From positions 138,814 to 202,813 of the forward strand of contig JAZDQA010000008.1 of assembly GCA_043797085.1 (NCBI GenBank): 64,000 bases of DNA, written 5' to 3'. Shown piece after piece: positions 28,696 to 50,964 of the stretch. The translations under genes and the position numbers were made by a program. How positions within the stretch are numbered: the stretch's first letter is position 1; every line of letters begins with the position of its first letter. Origin of the DNA: Pseudomonadota bacterium. GTDB lineage: Bacteria; Campylobacterota; Campylobacteria; Campylobacterales; Sulfurimonadaceae. The notes below the pieces were generated by a model that did no database searches, had not been told where the DNA came from, and was given only the letters and a program-made list of their open reading frames with translations.

Positions 28696-28974
28696 ATGCC
28701 TACCAAAGAAGAAATCTTAGCCCACGAAATCTGTGAATGCGGCGGCAAGAGTGTTGCCGATGCTATCAAAATATTTCAAGATACCTCCCTTCCTTATAAA
28801 AAAGCCAAAAAACTCGTTACCGAGTGTGACAAGAGCTGCTGCCGTGCTGCACTTCTACGAATATTTGATATGGCGTATACGGGTAAATTTGATTACGATG
28901 AGATCGATCGACTCATTCAATTACGCAACGATAAACTGGGCGAAATACTCGAGAGGATGAAAAGTGGGCGCTGA
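28696..28974 (+). CDS. Small BFD-like putative [2Fe-2S] protein
   Basis: ICEC...CDKSCC spacing resembling the BFD / NifU central domain; AAGGAGG RBS. Confidence 0.5.
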   Translation: MPTKEEILAHEICECGGKSVADAIKIFQDTSLPYKKAKKLVTECDKSCCRAALLRIFDMAYTGKFDYDEIDRLIQLRNDKLGEILERMKSGR

Positions 28975-29425
28975 AATAACCATTCGAGACGCTCATTATG
29001 ATGATGTTGGCGTAATGGCTGCTTTGTTGGTAGAGTTGTTTCTTATAGAAGACGATTTTAGCATTGACATTGAGAAACAAATACAGGGGTTAGAACTCTT
29101 ACTCGAAACCCAAAACTGCCTTGTTTTGGTTGCTGAAATTTCCGGACAAGTGATAGGAATGATTTCCATGCAAGGTCTTGTTTCTACTGCGATGGGTGAA
29201 CGTGTAGGTTTAATCGAAGACATGATCGTATCGCATGAGTTTCGCGGTATCGGAGTTGGTCGATTACTTCTTGGTTCTATGCTTGAACATGCAAATAGTC
29301 TTGGGTATGGACGTATTGCATTGGGAGCGGATAGACGAAATGAACGAGCTATTAATTTTTATTCTAAGTTTGGATTTGAGACGAGCAATATGGGGTTGAT
29401 GTATTATCTACCCCGTGCTCCATAA
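28964..29425 (+). CDS. GNAT-family N-acetyltransferase
   Basis: IEDMIVSHEFRGIGVGRLLL, NERAINFYSKFGF. Confidence 0.88.
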   Translation: MGAEITIRDAHYDDVGVMAALLVELFLIEDDFSIDIEKQIQGLELLLETQNCLVLVAEISGQVIGMISMQGLVSTAMGERVGLIEDMIVSHEFRGIGVGRLLLGSMLEHANSLGYGRIALGADRRNERAINFYSKFGFETSNMGLMYYLPRAP

Positions 29426-30204: not shown

Positions 30205-31128
<924 letters not shown>

Positions 31129-33074: not shown

Positions 33075-33078
33075 GACT

Positions 33079-34926: not shown

Positions 34927-35162
34927 AGTGATTCTTCGTCTTCAAATTCTTGAAATGCTTCGCTAAGGTCAGAGGGCTTGACAATCTCATTCTCCATCTT
35001 CTCAGCATATTCAGCTTCTTCAACTTTTGCATGCGCTTCTTCGACATAATCAATAAATGTTTCGATATCTTGCTGGGGTTGATAAAATTGTGCATACCCC
35101 AACGCAATATCTATAAATTCTGTTCCACACCCATAATTCACTAATTGCTGTTTTAAATCCAT
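34923..35162 (-). CDS. Small acidic hypothetical protein (79 aa)
   Basis: GAGG RBS; convergent with and overlapping the previous ORF at the stop codons. Confidence 0.55.
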   Translation of the reverse strand: MDLKQQLVNYGCGTEFIDIALGYAQFYQPQQDIETFIDYVEEAHAKVEEAEYAEKMENEIVKPSDLSEAFQEFEDEESL

Positions 35163-35235
35163 AATAGTTACCTCTTCTTTTAATTCGCGGTATTATAAAC
35201 AAGAACAGTTGAAATACCAATGTCTTAGAAATAAG

Positions 35236-35787
35236 TTACTTTTCTTTTAGATCATCTCGAAGTTTTGGGAGTTCTTTGCGATAACGTTCACCGTCTCCGT
35301 AAGGGGTAAATTTAAAGTAATGGGCGTGGTGAAAGCGCAGTTTGCGTGCGTGTCGAATCGGGCACCAAAATTGTTCTGTTCGTGCGATTATTTCAGTCGT
35401 ATAAGCCAAAAGACCGCTAAAGTATGAGCAATAAAAGCAGTTAATTTTTTCAACAATATTTAGAAATTCCAAGCTTGCACGATCAAAGGCAAAATACTCT
35501 TTACGCACAACCGGGTTGATCTTATAGACCCGAAAATTGATCATTTGATAGACAAACAAGAAAAATTCCAAAATAAATGCAGGGATGATACCGGCATAGA
35601 TAATAGGAGCTGTCAAAAGATGCAGTAACGGTGCGCGAGCTAAATAAACAAGCAAATTGACTTTAAACTTCTTTTGTGCAGCTAGAAGATCGCGTGAAAG
35701 CTTTTGCTCTTCTTTATCTATTTCTTTCAACAGGTTCTCTTCCAGAAGACGCATTGCAAGGAAAAGTTCATCTATTTTTGAGTTCAT
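35236..35787 (-). CDS. Hypothetical membrane protein with CxYCxY...WCPIxH motif
   Basis: Hydrophobic segment, then KINCFYCSY and TEQFWCPIRHA. Confidence 0.7.
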   Translation of the reverse strand: MNSKIDELFLAMRLLEENLLKEIDKEEQKLSRDLLAAQKKFKVNLLVYLARAPLLHLLTAPIIYAGIIPAFILEFFLFVYQMINFRVYKINPVVRKEYFAFDRASLEFLNIVEKINCFYCSYFSGLLAYTTEIIARTEQFWCPIRHARKLRFHHAHYFKFTPYGDGERYRKELPKLRDDLKEK

Positions 35788-35859
35788 GAAGTATCTTTGA
35801 ATCTAGGATACATAATACTATCAGGTGAACCCTCAAAGCCTTATGATTTTAGAAAATAA

Positions 35860-36357
35860 CTAGCGAATCAATATTTTCTTTGCTGTTTTCTTTCCATTTT
35901 TTGGAATGGTTATTATTAATGATCCTTTTTTAAAAACAGCATCTATTTTATTAATATCAGCATTTTCGGGTAAGACGATACTTTGATGATAAGAGCTATA
36001 CGATTGTTGTGATTTATTTTTTATTTTTTCTTTAACATTTCGTTCGGCAGCAATGACGAGCACATTGTTTACGACATTGATGAAAATGTCTTTTTTTTCG
36101 ATATCAGGTAAGAAAACATTAATGGTGTAAAATTTACCGGTTTCTTTGAAACTCATGGATGATTGATAATGAAGGGTAGGATGAACAAGAATTGAACGGC
36201 TAAATATTTCATCAATATTAGGAAACCACAACCCTTGACATTCGTATTCATTGGGTATTGCCGGTTCTTTGGCAGCAAAGGCAACGGAAGATGTTGCCAG
36301 TACTGTCATGAGAAGACTGGATAGAAGGACATTTTTTATTATAGAATGTGCATACAT
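35860..36357 (-). CDS. Hsp20/alpha-crystallin protein with N-terminal signal peptide
   Basis: LPDIEKKDI, LPENADINKIDAVFKKGSLIITIPK; hydrophobic leader ending in AFA. Confidence 0.8.
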   Translation of the reverse strand: MYAHSIIKNVLLSSLLMTVLATSSVAFAAKEPAIPNEYECQGLWFPNIDEIFSRSILVHPTLHYQSSMSFKETGKFYTINVFLPDIEKKDIFINVVNNVLVIAAERNVKEKIKNKSQQSYSSYHQSIVLPENADINKIDAVFKKGSLIITIPKNGKKTAKKILIR

Positions 36358-36442
36358 TGTTATTCCTCCACTTATTATGTAATATCAAATTGTAAATTAG
36401 TGAAATTAGATTTTTATGAGATAAGTCTATGGCAGTGTAAAT

Positions 36443-37057
36443 TTATGTGATAAGCGGAACGAAACGAAAGCCCGGTAATTCATAGACGTTTATTTCACCG
36501 TTGATTTCTTTTGTAATACGCCAAACGCTCTCTAAAATAGGAATAACCAGCACTCCAACGGGTTTGAGCTGATTTAATAATGCCATTGGCATATCCTCAG
36601 CACTTGCAGAGACGAGGATACGGTCATACAGATGTCCTGGTTTTCCAAGAACAGAGGCTTTTGCCAATTCAATCGATGCATTGTCAATATGCGCCTTCTT
36701 TAAATTTTTTTGACCATATTCCACGAGAGAGGGGATACGCTCAATCCCTTCCACAAATCCATCTTTACCGACTGCTGTTGCTAAAAGGGCGGTTGTCCAT
36801 CCTGAACCTGAACCAATATCTAAGATCTTGTCACCTTGTTTAGGCTGTAAAAGTTCCAGCATAATCGAGACGGTGGTGGGTTGAGAAATAGTTTGTCCTA
36901 TACCGATTGGCAGAGGGTAATCTCCGTAGATATCATCCAATGACCTTTCAGGGACAAAAAGACTACGGTCACATTTGCGAAATGCTTTTATCAGCACAGG
37001 GGAGTGAAGAACACCTGAGTTAATGAGATGATTAATAAGTTCTGTATTGCTGTTCAT
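36443..37057 (-). CDS. pcm: Protein-L-isoaspartate O-methyltransferase
   Basis: PLPIGIGQTISQP, LDIGSGSGW, YDRILVSA, FRFVPL. Confidence 0.9.
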   Translation of the reverse strand: MNSNTELINHLINSGVLHSPVLIKAFRKCDRSLFVPERSLDDIYGDYPLPIGIGQTISQPTTVSIMLELLQPKQGDKILDIGSGSGWTTALLATAVGKDGFVEGIERIPSLVEYGQKNLKKAHIDNASIELAKASVLGKPGHLYDRILVSASAEDMPMALLNQLKPVGVLVIPILESVWRITKEINGEINVYELPGFRFVPLIT

Positions 37058-37082
37058 CGTATTGCAATTCTACTGAATATGT

Positions 37083-37421
37083 TTAGACATGAACAACGGT
37101 TCTTGCTGATGGATTGGCTATCAATCGCTCAATGGGAATCTTTTTGGCGGTTTTTTCACATATACCGTAAACTCCCGATTTGATACGATTTAATGCCGCA
37201 TCAATCTCGGCTAATTCTGTTTCAAGCCTATGCAAAAGTGCTTGATCGGAAGTGTTGTCGATTTGCAATTGCGCCATATCTTCGATATCATCAATATCAT
37301 CATCAATGACAAGCGCATCGATTTCCGCTTTTAAAGTGTCAATATTACTAAGGACTTTTTTCTTATCTGCAAGGAGAATTTTTTCAAAAACCTTGTGGTT
37401 TAAATCATTTCTGGTGCTCAT
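37083..37421 (-). CDS. DksA/TraR-family RNA polymerase-binding protein, single-Cys type
   Basis: Coiled coil with DIED tip, IDAALNRI..GVYGICEKT..IPIERLIANP.ART. Confidence 0.8.
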   Translation of the reverse strand: MSTRNDLNHKVFEKILLADKKKVLSNIDTLKAEIDALVIDDDIDDIEDMAQLQIDNTSDQALLHRLETELAEIDAALNRIKSGVYGICEKTAKKIPIERLIANPSARTVVHV

Positions 37422-37445
37422 TTTTTATCCTTTTTCGGTTAAATT

Positions 37446-38471
37446 TTACTGCCAAATACCATGAAGCGGATAAGCACATGCAGGGCACTGATTGTTATTG
37501 ACTAAATGGTTCGTTACATACTGTCCAATATGGCCGTGACGGTCGATGACCAGCATCCCGCATTTCGGACAGTAGGTTGATTCTCTTGCCTCATCATCAA
37601 TGTTTCCGACATACACATACTTTAATCCAACGTCTTTGCCGATATCATAGGCACGTCGGAGTGTTTGAGCGGGTGTACGAGGAACATTTAACATTTTATA
37701 CATCGGATGGAAGGCACTGATGTGCCATGGCATGTTTGTATCAAGATTCGCTTGAAATTGGGCAATTGAGCGAATCTCTTCATCCGAATCGTTGTATCCC
37801 GAAATGAGCAGAGTTGTTGTCTCTATCCATATCCCTTTTTTGTGGGCGTATTCGATCGTATCCAGCACAGGCTTGAGAGATGCACCGCAAATGTCTTTGT
37901 AAAATGACTGACTATATCCTTTAATATCAATATTCATACCATCCAAATAAGGAGCTATGGTATCGATGGCTTTGTGCGTTTCATACCCGCTGGTGACGTA
38001 GATGTTTTTTAAACCTGCTTCATGCGCGAGTTTCGCGGTATCGTAGGTGTATTCGAAAAAGACAACCGGTTCATTGTACGTGTATGCAATGCTTTTACAG
38101 CCGTTTTTAAGTGCAAAATCAACGGCTCGCTGAGGAGACAAAGGATGCCCGATTATTTCGTGATTATGCTCTTTCGGATATTGCGAAATATCGGCGTTTT
38201 GACAAAATTTACAGGATAAATTACACCCGACCGTTCCAAATGAAAAAACGCTTGAACCGGGTAAAAAATGAAACATCGGTTTTTTCTCTATCGGGTCGAC
38301 ATTAACCGCTGCTGCAAGTCCATACGTCAGCAAATAAAGCTCACCGTTTTCGACTTTACGAATCCCGCAAATACCGTATTCGCCTTCGTTTAGTATGCAG
38401 TGCTGATTGCATGCCTCACACGCGATCCTGCCATCGTCTAGTTTTTTGGACAGCCATGCTATGGATGACAT
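37446..38471 (-). CDS. amrS: AmmeMemoRadiSam system radical SAM enzyme
   Basis: CEACNQHC..GICGIR, DPIEKKPMFHF, GCNLSCKFCQN, AYTYNEP, VYVGN, C-terminal CPKC/CPAC. Confidence 0.9.
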   Translation of the reverse strand: MSSIAWLSKKLDDGRIACEACNQHCILNEGEYGICGIRKVENGELYLLTYGLAAAVNVDPIEKKPMFHFLPGSSVFSFGTVGCNLSCKFCQNADISQYPKEHNHEIIGHPLSPQRAVDFALKNGCKSIAYTYNEPVVFFEYTYDTAKLAHEAGLKNIYVTSGYETHKAIDTIAPYLDGMNIDIKGYSQSFYKDICGASLKPVLDTIEYAHKKGIWIETTTLLISGYNDSDEEIRSIAQFQANLDTNMPWHISAFHPMYKMLNVPRTPAQTLRRAYDIGKDVGLKYVYVGNIDDEARESTYCPKCGMLVIDRHGHIGQYVTNHLVNNNQCPACAYPLHGIWQ

Positions 38472-38498
38472 TTGGACCCCTTTAAAAAAATATCTGCG

Positions 38499-38930
38499 TT
38501 ATTTTGTAAAATGTTCCAATAACTGATCATCAGGAGTTTTGGTCAAATCCGAATGAAGGTTTATAAACATCGTCATTTTGACTTTTGGATTCAGTAATTC
38601 GACTATTTGCTTATTGATGGCTTTAGGTGCCGCAAAATACCAGGATAATGGTGCATGCTGTTCAATCGTTTTGTTGATTTGGTCTGCGATATCTTTAATA
38701 CGGCGATGCTCTTCTTCCAGTTCTATATTATGATCTTCCCCTGATCCGCTGGCACCGAAACCTTTAAAATTCCCCTGCTGATCTGAAACTTTTTCTCTCA
38801 ATCGCTGATGTATATCGAGGCTTTCACTCCCTTCCATGAGTTCAACGGCTTCTCTTCCTAGCGGATCTTCTTTGGTAACAAAGAGTTTAAAACGCTGTAA
38901 ATCAGCTACGATAATAAGTTTTGATGACAT
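38499..38930 (-). CDS. Host-attachment protein (Host_attach / baeRF-related)
   Basis: IIVADL.RFKLF, SDQQG.F, FAAPK, DLTK motifs; GGGAG RBS before ATG 38930. Confidence 0.75.
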   Translation of the reverse strand: MSSKLIIVADLQRFKLFVTKEDPLGREAVELMEGSESLDIHQRLREKVSDQQGNFKGFGASGSGEDHNIELEEEHRRIKDIADQINKTIEQHAPLSWYFAAPKAINKQIVELLNPKVKMTMFINLHSDLTKTPDDQLLEHFTK

Positions 38931-38994
38931 GATAACTCCCTTCTTCATTAAGTTTATTTATCGTAACAATAATTAATGAGCAAAATATGATTTT

Positions 38995-39240
38995 TTATCT
39001 CTGATGCAGTGAAAAATACCCCACCATATGCTCCAGTGTATCGACTTTTGCATAATCGGATTCGGGAACTTCGACTCCTAGTATCTCACTTAAAGCCGTT
39101 AATATTTTTAAAAAATCGAACGAATCGATTTCCAATGAACGCTGAATATTATTATCGGGAATAATTTGAGCTTCGTCAATATCAGGGGCAATTTCTAATA
39201 TTTGTTCGATGATAGCGGATTTTATTTGCTCTTGGTTCAT
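38995..39240 (-). CDS. Acyl carrier protein (phosphopantetheine-binding)
   Basis: LEIDSFDF (DS phosphopantetheine site), LGVEVPESDY. Confidence 0.85.
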   Translation of the reverse strand: MNQEQIKSAIIEQILEIAPDIDEAQIIPDNNIQRSLEIDSFDFLKILTALSEILGVEVPESDYAKVDTLEHMVGYFSLHQR

Positions 39241-40313
39241 AGTAGCTCCTGTGGGTGTTGTAATAGATCGTTTAGTTTTTCCAGAAACTTTGCACCGGTT
39301 CGTCCATCTGTGGCGCGGTGGTCCCCTGCGAGTGTTGCCTTCATCACTTTACGTACACACAGAGCATCTCCCTCTGCCCATGGAGTGTCTAAAATACGCC
39401 CCAGCCCAACAAGAGCAATCTGTGGCGGATAGATAACACCGGATACGCTCTCTACGCCTAAATCTCCGAGATTGGTGATTGTGATAGTTTGCTGAGTGAT
39501 CTCAGTGTTTCTCAATTTTCCTGATCGGGTGCGTGTGATTAGATCATCAAGCTGATGCATTGTTTCATCCAGTCCCATCGTATCGGCAGCTAAAAGAGCC
39601 GGAGTAATCAGTCCCTCTTTGCGTAAAGCTATGGCGATTGCGGGATTAATCTCAGTCATGATTTTGGGAGCATCATTTTCCCAAAACCCGTTGAGTTCAG
39701 GGACTGTTTTAAGAGAAAGTACGACGGCACGAATCAGCAAGGCAGCGGGGAGAATCCGCTCTTTGATACCTCTGGCAGCATTGAGAGTTTCAAGCCAGTG
39801 GAGTGCCGGTGTCATGTTGATGGAGGTGGTGAGATAATAGTGGGGAATTTCGGCATTGGAACGGCTCATGGCACGAGCAATGGCCTGACGCATAGCACTC
39901 GTTTGGGGAGAATTGTCGAGCTTTTTTGAACTAGCTTCTACTTCAGCCAGTCCGACTCCCCTTGTATCGGAGGCTAAATCGGCAAGTTCGATTCCCAGCT
40001 CTTTTGCTTTTTTCCTTGCGGCAGGGGAGGCTTTTATTCGTTGGCTTTGGGGAACATCTTGTGTGATAGGTGTTTCTCCCTCAGCACGGATGATTGCCAA
40101 CGGGGTGCCAACTGTGCATTCTGTCTCCTCGTTTACGAGAATCTTTTCGATAATTCCCTCTTCGAATATTTCTATTTCTATGACTCCTTTACTCGTTTCC
40201 ACCTCTGCGACAACTTGTCCTTTGGTGACGTGATCTCCCTCTTTTATATGCCATTGCATCAATACAGCAGATTCCATGTCGGCACCCAAGCTGGGCATTA
40301 CAAAGTTGCTCAT
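39237..40313 (-). CDS. pdhC: 2-oxoacid (pyruvate) dehydrogenase E2 dihydrolipoamide acyltransferase
   Basis: [13 protein letters not shown] lipoyl Lys, ASPAARK E3-binding domain, IPHYY, DHRATDG. Confidence 0.9.
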
Positions 40314-41293
40314 GATTTCTCCATTAGTTTTTTAGCCATCGCCACAATCTTATACGGTTGCGGGAGGGCAGCATCTTCGAGATGTTTGGGATAGGGCATG
40401 GGTATATCAACCGTACATACCCGCTCCATCGGGGCATCAAGTTCAAAAAAAATCTGTTCGTTGATTCGTGCCATAATCTCAGCCGAAATGCTTCCCGATT
40501 TCCATCCCTCATCAACAATCATGACACGGTGGGTTTTTGTCACCGATTTCATGATACTTTCATCATCTAAAGGGCGAAGAGAACGCAAATCGATTACTTC
40601 AGCATCAATTCCATCAGTCGCTAGAGTTTTCGCCGCCTCAAGTGCTTTGAAGAGGCTGCTTCCGTAGGTTAAAATGGTTAGATCTTTGCCTTCTCGCTGT
40701 ATTTGTGCTTTTCCAATAGCCAAGGGAAGGGCTTGGGTATCTAGTTCCCCTTTAGAATTGTAAAGGATCGCGCTCTCAAAAATCAGTACCGGATCAGGAT
40801 CTGCAAGCGCCAAACCTAGCATATCATGTGCATCTTGTATGGTTGCAGGGGTTAGTACTTTTAGTCCGGGGATATGCGCATACCAGCCTTCCAGAGAATG
40901 AGAGTGTTGTGCAGCGAGCTGGTTGCCTCCTCCGGTTGCCATTCGGATGACCAGCGGAACATTAAACTGACCTCCCGACATCTCCAAAAATGTTGCTGCA
41001 TTGTTCATGATTTGATCAAGTGCCAAGAGGCTGAAGTTGACCGTCATAATCTCGACTATGGGTCGCATTCCGCCCAAAGCAGCACCGATACCCGCACCGG
41101 TAAATGCCGACTCAGACAAGGGAGTGTCAATAATCCGCTTTGGACCAAAGTGTTGAAAAAGTCCCATACTTACGGCGTAACTTCCTCCATAGCGTCCGAC
41201 ATCTTCGCCCATCAAAAAAACTCGTTCATCGTGTTCCATGGCTTCTCGCAGTGCGAGTCGTACTGCTTTTCGATAGGTCATAATTGAGTTCAT
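40310..41293 (-). CDS. pdhB: Pyruvate dehydrogenase E1 beta subunit
   Basis: [31 protein letters not shown]. Confidence 0.92.
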
Positions 41294-42240
41294 TGGACAA
41301 CCTCACTGGAGTAAACAAATTTTTCTAAATCTTCGATGGGTTCGAATGTACCGTTTTCGGCAAAGGTTACCGCTTCGTTGATGATGTCGGCAATCTCGAT
41401 TTCATATTTATCAATATCAATATCCTGCCAATGCTGATGCAATAGAATAAGAGGATCTTTTTTCTTCCACTCAGCCACCTCTGTTTTTTCACGGTAAAGT
41501 TCTGCATCAAACATGGAGTGGGCTCGAAAACGGTACGTGAAGTATTCGATAAATATCGGACCATTGCCCAATCGAATTTCTGCAACTGCTTCTTGTGCTG
41601 ATTTTGTGACCTCTGAAATATCCATGCCATCTGCTTGTCGGGAACTGATACGGTAGGATGCTGCCTTTTTAGCAAGATTTGTTTCTGACTGGGTGAACTC
41701 AAGTGCGGTTCCCATCGCGTAGAGGTTATTTTCACAGACGAAGAGAATCGGAAGATGCCATAAAGCGGCTAGATTGAGTGATTCATGAAATTCTCCCTCA
41801 GCTACGGCACCGTCACCGAAAATACATAGGGTAACTCTGTTGCGTTTCATCAGCTTATCTGAGAGAGCCATTCCCACAGCCAAGGGCAAACCACTTGCCA
41901 CAATAGCACTACCGCCGTAAAATCGTGTCGCAACATCAAAAAGGTGCATGGAACCGCCTCTCCCGTGAGAGCATCCTTGCGCTTTACCGTACAACTCCGC
42001 CATGATCTTTTTCGGATCAATTCCGCGTGCGATAGCTTGTCCATGATCTCGATAAGTAGTAAAGATGGCATCTTCAGGGGAGAGAGCATGCATAAGACCC
42101 ACACCAATGGCTTCTTGCCCGATGTACAGATGCAAAAATCCTCTGATTTTCTCTTTACCGTAAAGCTCTATGCATTTTTCTTCAAATCGACGAATCAAAA
42201 GCATCTTTCGATATAACTCATTTGCTAAAACTAAATCCAT
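41290..42240 (-). CDS. pdhA: Pyruvate dehydrogenase E1 alpha subunit
   Basis: [27 protein letters not shown]...ENN TPP motif, [11 protein letters not shown]. Confidence 0.92.
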
Positions 42241-42252
42241 TTTTAACCCCTT

Positions 42253-44004
42253 TTAATCTTCTAATGTAGAGATATCGCCCTCTGGCAATCCCATTTCTCG
42301 CGCTTTTAGTAAACGCCGCATGATTTTTCCGCTTCGTGTTTTTGGTATGTTTTGAATAAATTCTATCTCTTTGGGTGCTACGGCACTGCCTAGTCTCTTG
42401 CGCCCAAATCCGATTAGTTCGCGTCGGAGTTCTTCGCTTGGCTCAAAACCGGTTTTTAGAGCAATAAAAGCTTTGACCAATTGCCCTATCATCGCATCCG
42501 GTTTGCCGATGACACCTGCTTCCGCAACACTTGGATGTTCCATCAGGGTGCTTTCGACTTCAAAAGGTCCCACCATGTGTCCGGAGGTTTTGATGATGTC
42601 ATCACTGCGTCCGACAAACCAGAAATAGCCATCTTCGTCTTTATAGGCGAGGTCGCCTGAGAGATACCAACCACCGACAAAACACTTTGAATAGCGATCA
42701 TCATCATGAAGATAGTTGCGAAACATGGAGGGCCAGCCTGGTTTTAGGGCGAGCTCTCCTTCTTTATTTGCTTCGGTAACTTCCGTAACAGTACCATCAT
42801 CATGTTGATGGACTATGGATGCTTCGATTCCCGGAAGCGGTCGTCCCATCGAACCTGCGCGTATGTGCTGAGAGAGGAAGTTGGCAATCATAATTCCCCC
42901 CGTTTCCGTTTGCCACCAGTTATCATGGATCGGCATTTTCAGTTTTTCCATACCCCAAATGACTGCTTCAGGATTGAGCGGTTCGCCGACGCTTTGGATG
43001 AGGCGCAAATGAGACAGATCATATTCTTTGGTCGGTTCATTATCCAGTCTCATTAACCGTCTGATCGCTGTCGGTGCCGTATACCAAACCGTGACCTTCT
43101 CGTTTTGCAAAACACTGTACCATCGTGCGGCGTCAAACTCGGCTTCATCGACTATATTGGTAATGCCATGCAGCCAAGGGGTGATAATCCCATATGAGGT
43201 TCCAGTAACCCATCCCGGATCGGCGGTGCACCAGTAAACATCATTGGGATGAAAATCGAGAACATAGTAACCGCTCATCCAGTGATTGTACAGGGCTTTA
43301 TGGACATGAACTACCCCTTTTGGCATACCCGTCGTTCCGCTTGTGAAGTGCAGTATCGACATATCTTCAGGATCGGTAGGCAAAATGGTAAAGGAGTCGG
43401 AGGCTTTTTCCATCAGGCGAGGGAGTGAGCGGATACGTTCACTCTCGTCTTCTTGAGAATCGATCAAGAGTACATAGCGAAGATCGTTCAGTTGTTCCAT
43501 TAGAGGACGAACTTTTTTTTCAAAAAGAGCTTTGGTCGTCAGAAGAACTTTGGCATCCCCTCGTTGCATTCGCTGAAATATAGGTTCAGGACCGAATTGG
43601 GAAAAAAGAGGGCAAAGGACACTACGGTTTTTGAGAATACCAATCGCGGCGATATAGAGTTCAGGCAACCGTGTAGAGAGGGTAAATATCCGCTCCCCTT
43701 TGGAAATTCCCAAAGATTGGAGTAGGTTGGCAAATTTGGCACTTTGTTTTTTTAAATCGATAAAAGTATAGGTTTTTCTCTCACCGTTTTCTCCTACCCA
43801 TATCAATGCCGCTTTATCGCAAAGCGGACCATTAGCATGTCGGTCGATTGCTTCATGGGCGATATTGAGCCCGCCTGAGGGTAATCCATCAAACTCTTTA
43901 GCCACATTTTCCCAACTGAAAGATTCTCGTTCATGGAGGTACTCCATTAGGTTTGGTTTGATGGAAAAAGCGTTCAGATTTTTTTCGATCCAATTTTTAT
44001 TCAT
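42253..44004 (-). CDS. acsA: Acetate--CoA ligase (AMP-forming)
   Basis: [44 protein letters not shown]. Confidence 0.9.
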
Positions 44005-44112
44005 CGTCTTTTTACCTCATTTAAAACTTCGTTCTGTTTGATAAAATCAAGTTTCGATTGAAAAAAGTATAAGTTAAATTAGTGATAAAAAAATGAAGTA
44101 AAGGGCGCAATT

Positions 44113-44901
44113 ATGATGACGCATACCGCATGGCGTTTCTTCGATACAGGGATGAAAAATGGTGCGTGGAATATGGCGGTAGATGAACTGTTTTTGGAGG
44201 ATTTCAAAGAGGGGGATATGCCGATCATAAGAGTGTATGGATGGGAAAATACCCTGAGTCTCGGACGATTTTCGATGTTTTCAAAGAATCTTCATCATGA
44301 AAATATTCAGTCAAAAAATATTCCATTGGTTCGGCGTATGAGCGGAGGAGGAATATTGATCCATGGCGGTGATCTCTCTTACACTCTCATCATGCCGCGC
44401 ATGAGAGACAGAAGCGTCAAAGATAATTATCGGTATGTATGCGGATTTCTCATCTCTTTGTATCAAAAGATGGGTTATGAGGCTCAATTTGCGTGTGAAC
44501 TTCATCTCAACGAACAACGCTCAACCCTTTGTCTTGGAGGAATTGAACCCTATGATATTGTAATTGAGGGAAAAAAGATGGGAGGAAATGCTCAGCGTTA
44601 TACGAGACATGCGGTATTTCAGCACGGAAGTATCCCTATGAGAATCGATGAATCCTTTTTTAAACCGCTTTTTTTGGAAGATTCAGGATTAGAGCGGGCG
44701 GCAACATTGGAGATGCTTGGAACTGTGATGTCGTATGAGGAGCTTTGCGCATTGGTTCGAGAAGCATTTTGTGAAACATTTGCTGTTGAGCTCGTAACGG
44801 ATTTTCTCACCGTATCGCAAGAGCAGCGCGTGATGCAACTAAGTGCGGAAAAATACACTCAGGAAAGTTGGAATCTACATGGAAAAAACACTCATTCATA
44901 A
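44113..44901 (+). CDS. Lipoate-protein ligase / octanoyltransferase (LplA/LipM-like)
   Basis: NMAVDE, RVYGW, VRRMSGGG, KKMGGNAQR, QHGSI. Confidence 0.85.
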   Translation: MMTHTAWRFFDTGMKNGAWNMAVDELFLEDFKEGDMPIIRVYGWENTLSLGRFSMFSKNLHHENIQSKNIPLVRRMSGGGILIHGGDLSYTLIMPRMRDRSVKDNYRYVCGFLISLYQKMGYEAQFACELHLNEQRSTLCLGGIEPYDIVIEGKKMGGNAQRYTRHAVFQHGSIPMRIDESFFKPLFLEDSGLERAATLEMLGTVMSYEELCALVREAFCETFAVELVTDFLTVSQEQRVMQLSAEKYTQESWNLHGKNTHS

Positions 44902-45736
44902 GCCGCTATGGCTTCGTAAAAAGATTATTTTAAGTGACCTAAGCGCAATGGAGAGAGTATTGTCTCAAGGGCGTGTTCACACCATTTGTGAAGAGGCGAT
45001 GTGTCCGAATATCAGCGAGTGCTTTAGTCAAAATGTGGCAAGCTTTATGATTTTAGGGACAGTTTGTACACGCGCATGCAGTTTTTGTGCTGTTGGCAGG
45101 GGAATTCCGTTGGCTTTAAATCCTTATGAACCTGAGAATGTTGCACGAACGGTTTCGCATCTGGGATTAAAACATGTGGTCATTACCAGTTCTACCCGTG
45201 ATGATTTGAGTGATGGAGGCGCCGATCATTTTTGTAAAACGGTTCGTGCGATAAAGGCATTGGATAATTCTATCCTCGTAGAGCTTCTGATACCCGATAT
45301 GAAAGAAAATCTCTCGGCACTGCGACAAGTGGCGGTAAGTGGAGCTGAGATTATCGGACATAATCTCGAAACCGTACCGAGGTTGTATCATGTCCGAAAA
45401 GGGTCTGATTATGAACGCTCTCTTAGGGTATTGGCGATGCTTCATATTTTGAATCCTGATATTGCGCTCAAAAGCGGCATTATGCTTGGCTTTGGTGAGC
45501 GAGATGATGAGGTGGTGAGTCTTATGGAAGATTTACGGGAGGCGGGCTGTCGCTATTTGAGTATCGGACAGTATCTTGCCCCCTCGAATAAACATGAAAC
45601 GCTTGTAGAGTATGTGGAGCCAAAACGGTTCGAGTATCTTCGAGCGCGGGGAATGAAGATGGGTTTTTCATATATTAAAAGCTCTCCCTATACCCGCAGC
45701 AGCTATATGGCACATGAATATTTGGAGACAAGATGA
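44879..45736 (+). CDS. lipA: Lipoyl synthase
   Basis: CEEAMCPNISEC, CTRACSFC, GQYL, RSSY. Confidence 0.93.
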   Translation: MEKTLIHKPLWLRKKIILSDLSAMERVLSQGRVHTICEEAMCPNISECFSQNVASFMILGTVCTRACSFCAVGRGIPLALNPYEPENVARTVSHLGLKHVVITSSTRDDLSDGGADHFCKTVRAIKALDNSILVELLIPDMKENLSALRQVAVSGAEIIGHNLETVPRLYHVRKGSDYERSLRVLAMLHILNPDIALKSGIMLGFGERDDEVVSLMEDLREAGCRYLSIGQYLAPSNKHETLVEYVEPKRFEYLRARGMKMGFSYIKSSPYTRSSYMAHEYLETR

Positions 45737-47079
45737 AACACTTTGATGCAGTCGTAATCGGGGCAGGACCGGGGGGATATGAAGGGGCTATTGAGCTTGG
45801 AAGGGCAGGGCTAAAAACACTGCTGATCGATAAAAGTAAAGACCGTATTGGAGGGACTTGTCTAAATGAGGGGTGTATCTCAACCAAAAATTATTTAGAG
45901 AGTGCTTCATATGCGTCAAAAGCAGCTTATTTTTCTGATTGCGGATTGGAGATGGAAGTCAAGGGACTGGACATGGAGCGTCTTCGCCAGAAGACATTAG
46001 CGCTTAAAAATGAGCTGCGTTCAGGTGTCGTATGGAGGCTGGAGCAAGCCGGTGTTGAAACTTTTTTTGGTGAAGCATCTTTTATTGATTTTCACACAAT
46101 TGATGTTTCGGGTGAGAAAATCGGTTTTGAGAAATGCATTATCGCCACAGGTGCGAAAGTTCGAGAGACACCGCTGCTTGCTCTGGATGGTAAACGTATC
46201 CTTTCTAGCCGTGAGGTATTTGAACTGACAGCTCTCCCTAAATCGATCGTTATCGTCGGAGGAGGAGCCATCGGATGCGAATTCGCGACATTTTTCAACG
46301 CTTTTGGAGTAAAAGTGACACTCATAGCACGAGGCATTCAACTCCTCTCCGGTGAAGATGAAGAGATTTCCAAGGCGTTACTGCGAAGCTTCAAAAAATC
46401 CGCTATCACGGTCATGACCTCCACCTCGATTTTAAAAGCCCAAGTGCATACCGATGGGGTTACACTGAGCGTTCAAGGGGAAATGGAAGAGACTATTGAG
46501 TGTGAACTCGTACTGTGTGCAATAGGGCGAGATCCCTATACCCAAGAGCTTCATCTTGAAAACGCAGGAGTGCAATTGTCTCACAAAGGTTTTATCCGTG
46601 TGAATGACTCTTTTCAAACCATTCAACCTAATATTTACGCGCTCGGTGATTGCATTGACACACCGGCATACGCCCATATCGCCTACAGCGAAGCAAAAAT
46701 CGCCGCTCATAATCTCATCAGCGGCGGTACGCAATGCAATGACCATATTAATCCCACCACCGTCTTTTCGAATCCTCAAATTGCAAGCTGCGGATTGAGT
46801 GAAAAAGGGGCGCAAGCGCAAGAGAGAGCTATACACGTTAAAAAAGCTTTTTTTAAAGCCAATGCAAAAGCGAAGATTAACGGAGATGATTCCGGATTTG
46901 TGAAGATGATTGTCTGCTCGCAAAGTGATGTGATTTTAGGAGCTTCGATCATTGGAGGAGAAGCAACGGAAATGATTCACGAGATGGTCGTGGCGGTTGA
47001 GAAAAAACTCACGTCCAAAGAGCTTACGAATATGATCCATGTCCACCCAAGCGTCTCTGAAATCTTTAGGAATCTTTGA
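45733..47079 (+). CDS. lpdA: Dihydrolipoamide dehydrogenase (E3)
   Basis: GAGPGG, GGTCLNEGC, GGGAIG, HVHPSVSE. Confidence 0.9.
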   Translation: MKHFDAVVIGAGPGGYEGAIELGRAGLKTLLIDKSKDRIGGTCLNEGCISTKNYLESASYASKAAYFSDCGLEMEVKGLDMERLRQKTLALKNELRSGVVWRLEQAGVETFFGEASFIDFHTIDVSGEKIGFEKCIIATGAKVRETPLLALDGKRILSSREVFELTALPKSIVIVGGGAIGCEFATFFNAFGVKVTLIARGIQLLSGEDEEISKALLRSFKKSAITVMTSTSILKAQVHTDGVTLSVQGEMEETIECELVLCAIGRDPYTQELHLENAGVQLSHKGFIRVNDSFQTIQPNIYALGDCIDTPAYAHIAYSEAKIAAHNLISGGTQCNDHINPTTVFSNPQIASCGLSEKGAQAQERAIHVKKAFFKANAKAKINGDDSGFVKMIVCSQSDVILGASIIGGEATEMIHEMVVAVEKKLTSKELTNMIHVHPSVSEIFRNL

Positions 47080-47112
47080 TAGAGTATTTATATAAAAACA
47101 TGAGGCGAATGT

Positions 47113-49719
47113 ATGAATACGATGACTCTTCCCGAAGTATTTTTAGCATTTGACACCTCGGATGAGGGATTGAATGAGGATGAAGTTATACGGCGGAAGC
47201 AGCGATACGGACTGAACGTACTCTCCAAGATACCCACAAAACCATGGCTCTATAAATTAGCCGCACAATTTACCCATTTCTTCGCCCTGTTGCTTTGGGC
47301 TGCAGCGATCATCAGTTTCGGTACGGCGTGGATTGATCCTGCTTCCAATATGCTTCCAATTGGCTGGGCCATTGTTATTGTTATTATTTTAAATGGGGCT
47401 TTTGGTTTTTATCAGGAGTTTCGTACCGAAAAAAGCTTGGAAGCTCTGCGAAATTTTCTTCCTCTGAAAGTCACTGTGTACCGTGAAGGAAATGAGCAAG
47501 AAATATTAGCCGAAGAACTGGTTCCAGGGGACATCATACTTTTGAATGAAGGGGATAAAGTTCCCTCCGATGTTTATGTCATACAGGCATTTGACTTGTG
47601 GCTTAATGAAAGTACCTTGACCGGTGAGAGTGAACTGGTTTCAGCCGATGCCGTTGGATCGGGTCATGTCAAAACAATTCTTTATTCGGGGACGTATGTC
47701 GTTAAAGGGGAAGCGAAAGGATTGGTCTTTGCAACAGGAAAGGAGAGCCGATACGGAACGATTGCCGCATTGACACAGAGTGTGGATGCGGGAGAGAGTC
47801 ACCTGCAAAAAGAGATTGCTCATATTTCAAAAGTTGTTGCTTTGACATCCGTGGTGATTGCCGGAAGTTTGATCATTCTCTCAGGATTCGGAGAAAATGA
47901 ATTATGGAAAACATTTTTGTTTTCACTGGGTGTACTGGTCGCATTGATCCCCGAGGGGCTATTGCCTACCGTTACCTTGTCATTAGCTTTTGGTGCACAG
48001 CGGATGGCTTCTAAGGGATTTTTAGTCAATGGACTTTCTGTTATTGAGAATCTTGGAGCCGTGACGGTGATTGCGACGGACAAAACGGGGACGATTACTC
48101 AAAACAAGATGGAAGTGGCCGCATGGGACGAGGATGAAAAACAAGAGCCGTCACAAGAATTGCTTGATGCTGCACTTTTGTGCAACCGGGCTGACGCATC
48201 GACCGGGGATCCGGTAGAGCAAGCTCTTTTTAAATTCGCAGCCGGCTATATCGATGTTGCAGCAAGGCGTAATGAATATCCGCTTGTGGGTGATTATACC
48301 TTTGATTATCATCTCAAACGGATGAGTACCGTACACAAGACCAAAGAAGGTTTCTTCGTTTTTTGCAAAGGGGCACCTGAAGTGATTTTGGAGTTATGTA
48401 ATAAGGTCTTTACGTCCGAAGGAGAAAAAGAGATCACCGCCGATGAAACCCAAAAACTGATGGAAAAGCATGACCGTATGGCGGCACTTGGGTATCGGGT
48501 AATCGCATTTGCCAAACGTGATTGTGCTGCGTTGCCAACCTCACGAACACAAGCCGAAAGCGGATTGATCTTTATCGGTTTTATTGCTATGGTTGATCCG
48601 ATGAGAGATGATATTATTGAATCCATTGGATTGTGTCATCTGGCTGGGATACGACTATTGATGATTACTGGGGATCATCCCCTGACGGCTGGAGCGATTG
48701 GGATGAGTGCAGGGATTATTACGTCAATAACAGAAGTCACGACGGGGGAATTACTGGATAAACTTCCCCCGTCGGCAATCAAACATTTGTTACGGAAAAA
48801 TCATGTTTTTGCCCGTGTCTCTCCGGAGCAAAAACTCACCCTCGTGACACTCCTTAAAGAGATGGGAGAAACGGTGGCGGTGACCGGTGATGGGGTAAAC
48901 GATGCACCCGCACTCAAACGTGCCGATGTCGGGATCGCTATGGGATCAGGGACCGATGTGGCGAAACAATCCGCCGATGTGATTTTAATGGACAATCATT
49001 TTGCGACGATTGTCAAAGGGATCGAAGAGGGGAGAGCCGTCTATGAAAACATACGAAGGTTTATCACCTATATGTTGGCGAGCAATCTCCCTGAAGCCGT
49101 TCCGTATGTTATTTTCTTTTTGCTCGGTCTCCCTTTGGCGCTTCCCGTTCCGCTGGTCTTGGCGATTGATTTGGGGACGGACATTCTTCCGGGGATGGCT
49201 TTGGGAACGGAATTACCGCATAAGGGATTGATGAATCAAAAACCCCGAAGCCGTAAAGAGCATATCTTGACGATGGGTGTCTATTGGCGGGCCTTTGGAT
49301 TTTTGGGACTCTTGACGGCGGTGCTCTCTATAGGGCTTTTTTGGTTCTATCTTAATGCACACGGTTGGAACGGTGAACCCTTGTCGTGGACGAATCCTCT
49401 CTATCTTCAAGCGACAACTGTGACGTTTACGGCGATTGTTTTTGCACAGATCGCAAACGGTCTCTCGTGCCGAAGCGTAGATGAGTCTTTATTTGCGATC
49501 GGATGGTGGAGTAATCGTTATTACTGGATCGGTGTTGCGGTGGAATTGAGCGTTTTGGGAATAATTATTTTTTTCACCCCTCTCACGCATATTTTCGGAA
49601 CCGCTCCATTCGACCCGATTTATTGGTGGGCGGTTGTAGCCGTTACTGTGATCGTTTTGGCAGCGGAAGAGGGGAGAAAAGGGTTGATGAGGTATTGGAA
49701 TAAAAAACGCAGCCGATAA
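47113..49719 (+). CDS. Cation-transporting P-type ATPase (type II)
   Basis: TGES, PEGL, DKTGT, KGAPE, TGD, TGDGVNDAPALK. Confidence 0.93.
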   Translation: MNTMTLPEVFLAFDTSDEGLNEDEVIRRKQRYGLNVLSKIPTKPWLYKLAAQFTHFFALLLWAAAIISFGTAWIDPASNMLPIGWAIVIVIILNGAFGFYQEFRTEKSLEALRNFLPLKVTVYREGNEQEILAEELVPGDIILLNEGDKVPSDVYVIQAFDLWLNESTLTGESELVSADAVGSGHVKTILYSGTYVVKGEAKGLVFATGKESRYGTIAALTQSVDAGESHLQKEIAHISKVVALTSVVIAGSLIILSGFGENELWKTFLFSLGVLVALIPEGLLPTVTLSLAFGAQRMASKGFLVNGLSVIENLGAVTVIATDKTGTITQNKMEVAAWDEDEKQEPSQELLDAALLCNRADASTGDPVEQALFKFAAGYIDVAARRNEYPLVGDYTFDYHLKRMSTVHKTKEGFFVFCKGAPEVILELCNKVFTSEGEKEITADETQKLMEKHDRMAALGYRVIAFAKRDCAALPTSRTQAESGLIFIGFIAMVDPMRDDIIESIGLCHLAGIRLLMITGDHPLTAGAIGMSAGIITSITEVTTGELLDKLPPSAIKHLLRKNHVFARVSPEQKLTLVTLLKEMGETVAVTGDGVNDAPALKRADVGIAMGSGTDVAKQSADVILMDNHFATIVKGIEEGRAVYENIRRFITYMLASNLPEAVPYVIFFLLGLPLALPVPLVLAIDLGTDILPGMALGTELPHKGLMNQKPRSRKEHILTMGVYWRAFGFLGLLTAVLSIGLFWFYLNAHGWNGEPLSWTNPLYLQATTVTFTAIVFAQIANGLSCRSVDESLFAIGWWSNRYYWIGVAVELSVLGIIIFFTPLTHIFGTAPFDPIYWWAVVAVTVIVLAAEEGRKGLMRYWNKKRSR

Positions 49720-49829
49720 TTATTATATTGATCTTTATTCAGCGTAAAATTTTTACGCTTTATTTTACGCGAGACAATGCCAATCTTTGGCATATCCAAA
49801 CCATTGGTATGGAAAAAGATAAAAAATGA

Positions 49830-50330
49830 TTATAGTGCCCACTCCTTCACTATTTCATAGTGTGCTCCATCACTGTGAAGAACACTTTTGTAGAGGGCTA
49901 TTTTAGATTCAAGAATACCAATCGTTTCACATGGAGGATTTGTGAGGAGATGGGTGAAAATATCGGAGTCATTGATTTTTTTAACCCGTATCATAGTGAC
50001 ATGAGGATTTAATTCAATAGGTTCAAGCCCAAGAAAAAGTGCAAGTCGGTCATAAAGAATTTGCAGAGTATGGTTTTGTGTTGTTGCTACAAATACGCGG
50101 CTTGCAGAAAAATAATCGAATTTTGTTAATTCGGATGGTTTAAATGACCAATCAAAGTCACAAAGCTTATCGATCAGTATATCCTGCTGAAATTGATGAC
50201 CAAAAAAAGCGATCGTAGCATGAAGATAATCTTCTTCTCTCCATCTTCCTTCTAGCAGTGGGCTAAATTCTTGTTTAATTCGTTCATAGTTGTAAAGACG
50301 TACCGGAACGGCTAGGAAAAGACGTATCAT
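49830..50330 (-). CDS. thpR: RNA 2',3'-cyclic phosphodiesterase (2H phosphoesterase, ThpR/LigT)
   Basis: RLFLA N-terminus; two HxT motifs (HAT, HVT). Confidence 0.8.
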   Translation of the reverse strand: MIRLFLAVPVRLYNYERIKQEFSPLLEGRWREEDYLHATIAFFGHQFQQDILIDKLCDFDWSFKPSELTKFDYFSASRVFVATTQNHTLQILYDRLALFLGLEPIELNPHVTMIRVKKINDSDIFTHLLTNPPCETIGILESKIALYKSVLHSDGAHYEIVKEWAL

Positions 50331-50340
50331 ATAAAATTCT

Positions 50341-50817
50341 TTATTTTTTTTCCTGTGCGATTATTTGGTCAAGATGGTAAAAAAGATTTGGATATTTTTG
50401 TTTGATCTCATTAAGAAGCCAATTCAGATCAAGATTTACTACAGTGCTCTCAGGACGACCTAGCGCAAGTGTACGTATTCGATCCATGGCAACTTCCCAT
50501 ACGTCATGAAAATCGATCGGTAGATGCTGCCAAATCACTTTTTCAAGTTTAAGTTTAAAGTTTTCACTCTGTGCAGAGGTCAAAAATCGAACCATCTGTG
50601 TGAGCGATTCAGCTGTTGAGAGTGTATAGATATTATCTTCATCGTCAAGAATTATCCACGGATGTTTTTTATCCCAGCTGCCTTGAAGAAGCTCTAAATT
50701 TTTGTGCCGCTCATCACTGCCTGGTCTCATCCTTACAACAGTCAATTCTAAAATATTGATTCCCATATTTTCAGCTATTTGTCCAAAATCTTTTTTTAGA
50801 TGTTCTGGATAAGTCAT
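50341..50817 (-). CDS. DUF2603-like Campylobacterota protein
   Basis: ENFKLKLEKVIWQHLPIDFHDVWEVAM, IKQKYPNLF. Confidence 0.7.
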   Translation of the reverse strand: MTYPEHLKKDFGQIAENMGINILELTVVRMRPGSDERHKNLELLQGSWDKKHPWIILDDEDNIYTLSTAESLTQMVRFLTSAQSENFKLKLEKVIWQHLPIDFHDVWEVAMDRIRTLALGRPESTVVNLDLNWLLNEIKQKYPNLFYHLDQIIAQEKK

Positions 50818-50964
50818 AAATCACCTCTTTCTAAAATAGTTTGAGTAGTACATTTTATGTTATTATTAATAATAACATATATTTATGAGATGATGCATGC
50901 TTAGTATTTTTTTGACATCACATAAGCGATTTGGGTACACTAAACAACTTTATAAATCGGGACA

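Follow-up and report, generated by a model that had tools for sequence, protein, structure and literature searches.

A pyruvate dehydrogenase-type operon with a dedicated acyl carrier protein and its own lipoylation arm in a Sulfurimonadaceae bacterium

Organization of the locus

The 64,000-nt stretch analysed here (the window; contig JAZDQA010000008.1 of assembly GCA_043797085.1, family Sulfurimonadaceae, phylum Campylobacterota) carries at positions 38995-47079 a pyruvate dehydrogenase (PDH)-type operon that ends in the gene of a dedicated acyl carrier protein (ACP), and divergent from it a second arm for lipoylation and the E3 component. The original prediction had described eight genes in a head-to-head layout with 4-nt overlaps among the last four genes of the operon, and the list of open reading frames (ORFs) and the family scans bore this out at exact coordinates. 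The operon, on the minus strand, begins with acs (42253-44004), the product of which scores 920.2 bits against the acetate-CoA ligase model NF003313 (cut-off 729). Twelve nucleotides further on follows the gene of E1alpha, the thiamine diphosphate (ThDP)-binding subunit (41290-42240; PF00676 E1_dh, E = 1.4e-79; TIGR03182 PDH_E1_alph_y, 422.4 against a cut-off of 393.85), then E1beta with its Transket_pyr and Transketolase_C domains (40310-41293; NF006667, 408.8 against 321), the E2 dihydrolipoyl acyltransferase (39237-40313) and the 81-aa ACP (38995-39240; PF00550 PP-binding, 31.9 against 20.8). The E1alpha/E1beta, E1beta/E2 and E2/ACP junctions are all 4-nt overlaps, the last being an ATGA in which the ACP start codon lies on the E2 stop codon. 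Family scans assign E1alpha to the PDH type, and its Transketolase_N score of 19.6 is under the cut-off of 22.

A divergent intergenic region of 108 nt (44005-44112) separates acs from the lipoylation/E3 arm on the plus strand. The arm comprises an LplA/LipM-like lipoyl/octanoyl-protein transferase of 262 aa with PF21948 LplA-B_cat as its sole domain (44113-44901; 107.4 bits), the lipoyl synthase LipA (44843-45736; NF004019, 352 against 203; TIGR00510, 310.5 against 310.25) and the dihydrolipoyl dehydrogenase Lpd, or E3 (45733-47079; TIGR01350, 433.6 against 408.8). The lpd gene overlaps lipA by 4 nt, and the lipA start is uncertain, being either GTG at 44843 or ATG at 44879. The divergent region is conserved in the closest kin alone and is replaced by unrelated sequence in other clades. 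A TTGAT-N3-ATCAA palindrome at 44038-44050 was rejected as a shared regulator site, as it is missing from the same region of congeners. Promoter and terminator sites were no commoner than in shuffled sequences (33 versus 32.1 and 8 versus 13.9, respectively).

E2 consists of a PF00364 lipoyl domain bearing K42, a short linker with a degenerate E3-binding domain, and a PF00198 catalytic domain with T280, H332 and D336. All four residues are invariant in an alignment of 40 cassette E2s (40/40). The PF02817 match in the linker is partial and spans just positions 1-22 of 36, and the whole protein reaches 221 against the PDH E2 equivalog TIGR01349, the cut-off of which is 445. The nearest solved E2 is mammalian E2p (179 bits). 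In the Campylobacterota copies the peripheral-subunit-binding domain (E2 residues ~93-130) lacks the 'GTGPxGxI' stretch that is present in other phyla. The Campylobacterota E2s altered in this way are the copies that have their own Lpd, and the docking of E3 may have changed in them.

Acs has as its nearest solved chain 9g79_B, a 572-aa acetyl-CoA synthetase (560 bits). The alignment retains the GWVTG, SVGEP and WWQTETGG stretches, which we take to form the acetate pocket, and places R535 on R584 of S. enterica, which we take to be the arginine that binds coenzyme A (CoA). Judged by its sequence, Acs has the features of an ordinary acetate-CoA ligase. It suits acetate rather than octanoate, and there is no sign that the use of CoA has been given up.

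The core operon is a cross-phylum cassette

We used an alignment of 11 ACP sequences to anchor a search of species genomes, which returned at least 506 confirmed places, and kept the best 80. By record title, these best 80 loci belong to Campylobacterota, Thermodesulfobacteriota, Verrucomicrobiota, Chloroflexota, Acidobacteriota, Planctomycetota, Pseudomonadota and one 'Thermotogae' bin. Where at least 1.2 kb of upstream sequence was available, an E2 gene ends within 800 nt upstream of the ACP gene in 68 of 69 loci. Where at least 5.2 kb was available, all four of Acs, E1a, E1b and E2 lie upstream of the ACP gene on the same strand (57 of 60 loci). Since these loci were selected by their ACP, they show that the operon goes with the ACP; only within the family is the reverse shown as well. 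Together with the nine congeners that have the E2, in which the ACP follows in 9/9, these counts place the gene order far beyond chance. The five-gene core acs-pdhA-pdhB-E2-acp is therefore not a Campylobacterota oddity but a widespread cassette, a point that the original prediction had missed. The core is a PDH-type complex with a dedicated ACP. A full-text literature search, which covered few subscription journals, found no published description of it.

Three of the 60 loci depart from the common order: L035 is rearranged, L046 has extra genes inserted, and L055 has only Acs, ACP and a GNAT gene. L035 is a hybrid in which Acs-E2-ACP is followed by E1 genes resembling those of another PDH module described below (Acs-E2-ACP-E1a-E1b). 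L055, from a betaproteobacterial bin (L055:6205-8786), lacks E1 and E2; its Acs is directly followed by a cassette-type ACP and then by a GNAT acetyltransferase, possibly a minimal Acs-ACP pair. Across phyla, Acs is the most conserved partner (54-82% identity). The ACP also occurs in 29 plasmid records, for example of Cupriavidus and Leisingera, mostly beside an annotated dihydrolipoamide acetyltransferase. On one plasmid the annotation reads acsA-pdhA-E1beta-E2-'phosphopantetheine-binding protein', and genes for a nitroreductase, a CBS-domain protein and a phosphoribosyltransferase lie around it.

Occurrence among congeners and in the family

Nine of 24 congeners have a full-length E2 match, and the ACP comes directly after E2 in all nine. 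For the family we drew an even sample of 101 genomes including the source; the numbers below are plain counts, as kin are not independent. E2 (PF00198) was found in 27/101 genomes and a strong LipA match (E <= 1e-30) also in 27/101, with both present in 25, E2 only in two (G076, 81% complete; G108, 90%), LipA only in two (G073, 77%; G074, 80%) and neither in 72. LplA-B_cat occurs in 25/101 genomes, 23 of which have E2; G073 and G074, in which LipA stands without E2, make up the rest. The E2-positive genomes without LplA-B_cat (G076, G092, G108 and G109) are all fragmented assemblies. In this family, the lipoate machinery exists only where the E2 module exists, in an all-or-none manner. The cassette ACP (E <= 1e-10) is found in 19/101 genomes and abuts the E2 match in 19/19. 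A cassette-type Lpd that passes the curated cut-off occurs in 16 genomes, and 15 of these also have the ACP.

The family also has a second module, which we call type B. We found it by aligning the window proteins to four family genomes. Type B runs E1a-E1b-E2-Lpd-(LipB-like, ~195 aa)-LipA, with no Acs and no ACP (L098, L100 and L102), and its E1 is just 40-44% identical to the window E1. Since type B has its own LipB-like enzyme and LipA but no ACP, ACP-less PDH modules of the same lineage lipoylate E2 without a private ACP. A PDH of vent Epsilonproteobacteria, different from the cassette and without an ACP, has been published as type II (Zhang and Sievert 2014, PMC3958643) and was likewise missed by the original prediction. 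The terms acyl carrier, lipoate, lipoyl and acetyl-CoA synthetase do not occur in that paper (PMC3958643), and type B is probably this type-II PDH. Like the cassette, type B is a laterally distributed E1alpha-beta PDH in Campylobacterota that otherwise rely on pyruvate:ferredoxin oxidoreductase (POR), and it comes with its own Lpd, LipB-like enzyme and LipA. It differs from the cassette in the absence of Acs and ACP, in the low identity of E1 and in forming a separate branch with 100% support in the tree of E1beta described below.

Genome G106 holds both module types (L098 = G106:C1:464000-480000). Its cassette arm has Lpd and LplA without LipA, and its only LipA lies in the type B cluster and is apparently shared. 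G072 and G132 seem to have a third arrangement, in which LipA and LplA are divergent from a lower-scoring E2 ~3 kb away.

The module is the only lipoyl system of its genome

The source genome (2.40 Mb in 14 contigs, rated 95.9% complete) has E2 as its only match to PF00198 (2-oxoacid_dh) and the LplA/LipM-like gene as its only match to LplA-B_cat. Profile searches of this genome found no match to GCV_H (GcvH) or to Lip_prot_lig_C (PF10437). Biotin_lipoyl has four other matches in this genome. Two of them have much higher scores and, also from their ORF lengths, are presumably biotin enzymes; the remaining two are marginal and presumably HlyD-like. The module, which has LipA and Lpd besides the sole E2 and the sole lipoyl-attachment enzyme, is thus self-contained and is the genome's only lipoyl system, as the original prediction had held of its self-contained, lipoate-dependent nature. 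The same prediction had placed it in a lineage that uses POR, and two strong POR_N matches show that the host indeed has this enzyme.

The LplA/LipM-like protein stays under all NCBIfam cut-offs, and its nearest solved chain is lipoate-protein ligase A (2ars_A). A cysteine ~17 residues before GxKxGGNAQ is kept in 13/13 full-length orthologues and may correspond to the acyl-Cys of LipM. The LipL model reached 21 bits against a cut-off of 450. Since neither GcvH nor a LipL-type relay was found, the LplA/LipM-like enzyme must act directly on E2. The arm resembles the LipM/LipA assembly route in that an LplA-family enzyme consisting of the catalytic domain only adjoins LipA in a genome without LplB. 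It differs in lacking GcvH or a LipL-type relay and in that the nearest solved relative of its enzyme is a ligase, and the octanoyltransferase role is putative.

Among loci with ~8 kb of upstream sequence, tblastn with the window LplA and LipA found both genes beside the cassette in 13/16 Campylobacterota-titled loci and in 0/34 others. This criterion misses some cases: Desulfobacter latus has LplA right after the ACP (L040), L060, L076 and L087 have a 210-aa LplA-B_cat gene beside the cassette, and L077 and L087 have LipA at 41-44% identity. The arm thus appears to be present in Campylobacterota and some Thermodesulfobacteriota, lineages in which other lipoyl enzymes are often missing. Lpd is encoded in most Campylobacterota cassette loci and in 15/19 ACP-positive family genomes. 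In other lineages the host presumably supplies lipoylation and E3. What is new in the present locus is the attachment of a lipoylation and E3 arm to the five-gene core, which makes it the most complete edition of the cassette. Because its host has no other lipoyl protein, the module brings the E3 and lipoylation genes with it, and this shows that the cassette needs the full oxidative lipoyl cycle.

The dedicated ACP and its predicted docking on E2

The cassette ACP lies under every NCBIfam ACP cut-off. Ser40, within 'EIDSFDF', is its presumed phosphopantetheine site. In an alignment of 34 sequences, the subfamily shows the pattern IAPE...DIDSFDF...PExDY with A18, P19, D39, S40, P59 and E60 invariant, and Ser40 with its flanking DS motif is thus kept in 34/34 members. 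Among 1.84 billion representative proteins, 819 relatives were found at E <= 0.001 and 54 at E <= 1e-10. The labels of the best ACP relatives are Sulfuricurvum, Sulfurimonas and Sulfurovum. Six longer relatives checked for Rosetta-stone fusions carry PP-binding domains only. The closest solved structures are mitochondrial ACPs, which are structural subunits of complex I. The source genome has five PP-binding matches including the cassette ACP, and one AcpS-type transferase. Three of the other matching ORFs lie outside the window within 5 kb of one another (contig C7:119441-124237), in an ACP-rich cluster.

A complex of three E2 catalytic domains (residues 130-358; 40-row alignment) with the ACP (34-row alignment) was predicted with an interface score, ipSAE, of 0.64, as opposed to 0.00 for the best of three controls. 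This mark is reached by 116 of 157 solved complexes and by 2 of 215 mismatched pairs, a calibration that is only rough for custom alignments and a trimer. The three E2-ACP runs agree in at least 94% of contacts, with a partner pLDDT of at least 85. We know of no solved E2-ACP complex, so it seems unlikely that the score derives from the memory of the model. Condensation domains of nonribosomal peptide synthetases (NRPSs) with their carrier proteins are distant structural analogues of such a pair.

The predicted interface takes in 16 ACP residues (18, 20, 33-34, 37, 39-41, 44, 47-48, 51, 57 and 59-61), including five of the six invariant ones (A18, D39, S40, P59 and E60). On E2, one subunit contributes residues 175-190, 229-232, 256, 259 and 284-286; the neighbouring subunit adds 338, 342 and 345, just past its catalytic His332. 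Ser40 and helix II of the ACP are predicted to contact E2 residues 186-190, 231, 259 and 284 and the neighbour's 338-345, and Ser40 has the lowest predicted error of all interface residues. We compared the surface residues of the cassette E2s with those of three type B E2s and one mammalian E2p. R231, I259 and D284 are each kept in 38/40 cassette E2s; the type B proteins have D/D/E, K/K/Q and M/M/M at these positions, and mammalian E2p has a gap, A and M.

The side of the active-site channel at which the ACP would dock was assessed from three papers and an approximate residue mapping. The lipoyl arm enters the E2 core from the outside and CoA from the inner cavity (PMC8421416). In mammalian E2p, the lipoyl domain contacts K552-H556 and F558-G560 (PMC11754459), which align with residues 266-270 and 272-274 of the cassette E2, none of them in the ACP interface. 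The CoA-binding Arg357 of a fungal E2 (PMC8626477) could be placed only approximately, by range offsets in place of a printed alignment, and falls near R261/R263, a single helical turn away from contacts 256 and 259. The gatekeeper Leu521 (PMC9681731) corresponds to L235. From the model and these correspondences, we infer that the ACP docks on the CoA side of the E2 active-site channel.

Interpretation of the ACP

The cassette shares several features with the PDH complex with a heterotetrameric E1, of the alphaproteobacterial/mitochondrial and Gram-positive type. E1alpha, E1beta and Lpd are above NCBIfam cut-offs, and E2 has the lipoyl domain with K42, the subunit-binding stretch and the catalytic residues of the T/S...DHRxxDG kind. 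In contrast to that complex, it has a dedicated ACP translationally coupled to E2, an Acs gene as the first of the operon and the specific residues R231, I259 and D284 at the predicted ACP site; besides, the subunit-binding domain of the Campylobacterota copies is degenerate and E2 falls short of its equivalog cut-off, as described above.

The most likely role of the ACP, to which we give about an even chance, is that of acetyl acceptor of the E2 catalytic trimer, in place of or besides CoA. This reading is favoured because the ACP is predicted to dock on E2 and because it is kept with Acs-E1-E2 where no lipoylation genes are nearby. In such a scheme, the LipM-like enzyme would place an octanoyl group on Lys42 of E2, which LipA would turn into lipoyl; E1alpha-beta would decarboxylate pyruvate and acetylate the lipoyl arm; and the E2 trimer would hand the acetyl group to the phosphopantetheine thiol of a holo-ACP docked at the CoA-side mouth of the channel. 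The product would be acetyl-ACP, instead of or besides acetyl-CoA, while Lpd would reoxidize the lipoyl arm with nicotinamide adenine dinucleotide (NAD+) and Acs would link free acetate to the same acetyl pool. The divergent arm supplies what the host lacks and makes the Campylobacterota cassette self-sufficient. Several points weigh against this reading. The docking is a model from which we infer acetyl transfer as a prediction, and its support is partly circular, because the conservation of the interface was visible to the model through the alignment. The trimer was modelled in isolation; within a 24- or 60-mer core, the site may be buried or poorly accessible. R261 and R263, the basic residues for the binding of the CoA phosphates, are invariant, and CoA may still be the substrate. 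Acs keeps R535 and an equivalog score for acetate-CoA ligase, which fits an ordinary acetyl-CoA pathway with no need of an ACP, and the module encodes no consumer of acetyl-ACP.

Several of these points are shared by an ordinary PDH that makes acetyl-CoA, with the ACP serving as a regulator, gate, acyl-state sensor or structural subunit at the CoA mouth. The components E1, E2 and E3 reach or approach PDH equivalog scores, the residues for the CoA phosphates are retained and Acs has the look of a genuine CoA ligase. An inhibitor could be expected to dock on the CoA side as well as a substrate, and the complex I subunits that are the best solved matches of the ACP set a precedent for a structural part. 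However, the invariance of Ser40 and its DS motif points to a functional pantetheine arm, and it is Ser40 that shows the lowest predicted error at the interface. We regard a non-carrier role as unlikely.

The original prediction had offered two roles for the ACP, the channelling of acyl units to it and a private octanoyl donor for lipoylation. The former is favoured by the predicted docking and the retention of the ACP, and the latter has lost ground. An octanoyl donor would carry octanoate for transfer by the LipM-like enzyme to Lys42 of E2 and would have no catalytic part. The attachment enzyme is indeed catalytic-domain-only in a genome with no LplB-type domain, it keeps the cysteine upstream of the conserved lysine in 13/13 orthologues, and LplA comes directly after the ACP in L033 and L040, while a 210-aa LplA-B_cat gene follows it in L060 and L076. 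The ACP-dependent LipM octanoyltransferases described by Tanabe et al. (PMC10332631) likewise consist of the catalytic domain only. Nevertheless, the ACP is kept in all of the 34 non-Campylobacterota loci with ~8 kb of upstream sequence, none of which showed both LplA and LipA by tblastn, the ACP-less type B modules have their own LipB-like enzyme and LipA, and nothing in the module would load octanoate, as Acs keeps the stretches that we presume to form its acetate pocket. The docking, moreover, is predicted on the catalytic domain of E2 and not on the lipoyl domain or the ligase. We consider a private octanoyl donor quite improbable.

Adenylate-forming enzymes and carrier proteins are a classical pairing, and Acs could be the partner of the ACP, either loading it with acetate or using acetyl-ACP, AMP and pyrophosphate to form ATP; the docking on E2 would then be spurious. 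The Acs-ACP-GNAT locus without E1 or E2 (L055) and the high conservation of Acs across phyla accord with such a partnership. It is opposed by the position of the ACP gene, which abuts E2 and not acs in 68/69 loci and stays with E2 in the rearranged L035, and by an Acs that shows no visible departure from CoA-using AcsA; this idea is in our estimate slightly more doubtful still. A bolder proposal, and a long shot, is that the ACP is a protein-bound stand-in for CoA in a closed E1/E2/E3-ACP-Acs machine that would convert pyruvate to acetate and gain ATP by a reversed Acs while sparing the free CoA pool in starved or oxygen-limited cells. If true, this would be an unknown form of substrate-level phosphorylation built on pyruvate dehydrogenase.

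Among known systems, ThDP enzymes and ACPs meet in natural-product biosynthesis: in QncN/QncL/QncM of quinocarcin and SclQ1-4 of scleric acid, an E2-like acyltransferase has been proposed or shown to load an ACP with a C2 unit (PMC6335953). Judged by their descriptions, these glycolyl-ACP systems resemble the cassette in that a small ACP is encoded along with a ThDP enzyme and an E2-type acyltransferase that bears a lipoyl group. They have a transketolase-like ThDP enzyme acting on ketose phosphates and are found in NRPS clusters with no Acs, whereas the cassette has a PDH-type E1, lies in a context of stress genes and extends over many phyla. That the module feeds an ACP-bound C2 starter to a polyketide synthase (PKS), NRPS or lipid line encoded elsewhere is very improbable: this precedent and a short-chain dehydrogenase/ketoreductase (SDR/KR) gene after the ACP in L029 are outweighed by the PDH-type E1alpha with its subthreshold Transketolase_N score, by neighbours that are stress, repair and energy genes, and by the lack of PKS/NRPS domains (ketosynthase, condensation, adenylation-carrier and thioesterase: KS, C, A-PCP and TE) in 27 scanned window proteins and 38 recurrent flank representatives, so that the natural-product context drawn by the original prediction was not upheld. 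Overall, what that prediction had observed is confirmed and its interpretation is partly supported.

In the textbook view, the E2 of a 2-oxoacid dehydrogenase passes acyl groups to free CoA. A PDH-type E2 that keeps a private ACP across many phyla, with residues specific to the cassette where the contact is predicted, would mean either that acetyl units are also passed to a protein-bound arm or that PDH has an unrecognized subunit. For this question, the Campylobacterota form offers the cleanest natural setting for a test and a minimal eight-gene set for reconstitution. For sulfur-oxidizing autotrophs that use POR and the reverse tricarboxylic acid cycle, the module would be a second, NAD-linked connection between pyruvate, acetate and acetyl units.

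Neighbourhood, acquisition and transcripts

Downstream of the ACP gene, on the same minus strand, family scans identified Host_attach/baeRF12 (38499-38948), an AmmeMemoRadiSam radical SAM protein (37446-38471), a DksA-like protein (37083-37421), PCMT (36443-37057) and Hsp20 (35860-36357), followed by orf183 without a family name (35236-35787). This stress set (35236-38948) is probably co-transcribed with the cassette. The same set stands after the cassette in L020, and L008, L009 and L028 have part of it there. After lpd, on the plus strand, lies a P-type cation ATPase with E1-E2_ATPase and Cation_ATPase domains (47113-49719), homologues of which stand beside the cassette in L020, L031, L032, L034, L042, L061 and L084. 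The most recurrent neighbours of the cassette are PCMT (10 loci), Hsp20 (6) and the P-type ATPase (6). Others are AmmeMemoRadiSam and Memo, an RF-1-domain protein, a phosphoribosyltransferase, a CMD-family protein, DHH/DHHA2, PPDK_N, malic enzyme, nitroreductase and BON. This setting resembles stress or dormancy islands and may be akin to the DosR regulon of mycobacteria. The module has protein-repair and stress genes as neighbours and probably serves the cell in times of stress or scarce energy. The low-oxygen lxa locus of Burkholderia cenocepacia was set aside as an analogy only: it is listed with Pta and AckA, and with no PDH, Acs or ACP (PMC3721108).

In several congeners (L018-L022:8268-9505), Memo and RF-1-domain (ArfB-like) genes come after the ACP in place of baeRF12 and AmmeMemoRadiSam, and release-factor-like or ribosome-rescue genes recur beside the cassette. 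In the Caldilinea-type loci L050, L068, L086 and L091, Fer4_22, NAD-binding/FeS and [NiFe]-hydrogenase large-subunit domains are encoded 3' of the ACP, a hint that hydrogen production linked to NAD(P)H may stand beside a dehydrogenase that yields NADH.

The block 38995-49719 has a guanine-plus-cytosine (GC) content of 45.4% as compared with 40.8% for the genome, a value reached by just 0.65% of 460 10-kb windows. With this composition and a patchy occurrence (9/24 congeners and 19/101 family genomes), the module looks acquired by transfer, in agreement with the horizontal acquisition that the original prediction had suggested. An E1beta tree was made by a quick method with 38 rows, in a sample biased to relatives of the query; 34 of 82 cassette loci (L017-L096, L099 and L101) gave a usable ORF. 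Cassette and type B were split at 100% support. The 12 rows from outside Campylobacterota form one clade, also with 100% support, the Campylobacterota rows are unresolved around it, and D. latus falls with the Campylobacterota rows (support 86). With this topology, no donor or direction of transfer can be named.

Of the words sampled from the 8-kb module, 74% occur in a groundwater metatranscriptome (run X1). Contigs of this run, 22 of 23 of them with an identity of >=99%, cover 35093-36383, 41140-43217, 43393-43720 and two pieces of lipA, and a single 4.4-kb contig spans 36772-41163, from PCMT to E1beta. These are assembled contigs from one RNA library that end in adapter and may include carried-over DNA, and strand, level and a single transcript cannot be read from them. 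No X1 contig covers nifK (33000-34267) or lpd and the ATPase (~46314-50117), and two further RNA runs of the same study gave no match, neither of which is proof of absence.

Directly upstream of the stress/PDH block, on the plus strand, lie nifH (30214-31128), a small ORF, and nifD-like (31605-33074) and nifK-like (33079-34623) genes, and a GNAT gene is located at 28964-29425. The plus-strand gene at 55421-59764 encodes a 1447-aa fusion of CheB methylesterase, CheR methyltransferase, several PAS domains and a histidine kinase. Finally, positions 49696 and 50908 are linked through 45 different letters on a DNA contig from a relative of 95-99% identity (run X2), so the X2 strain is without the LigT-like and DUF2603 genes of the window (49697-50907).

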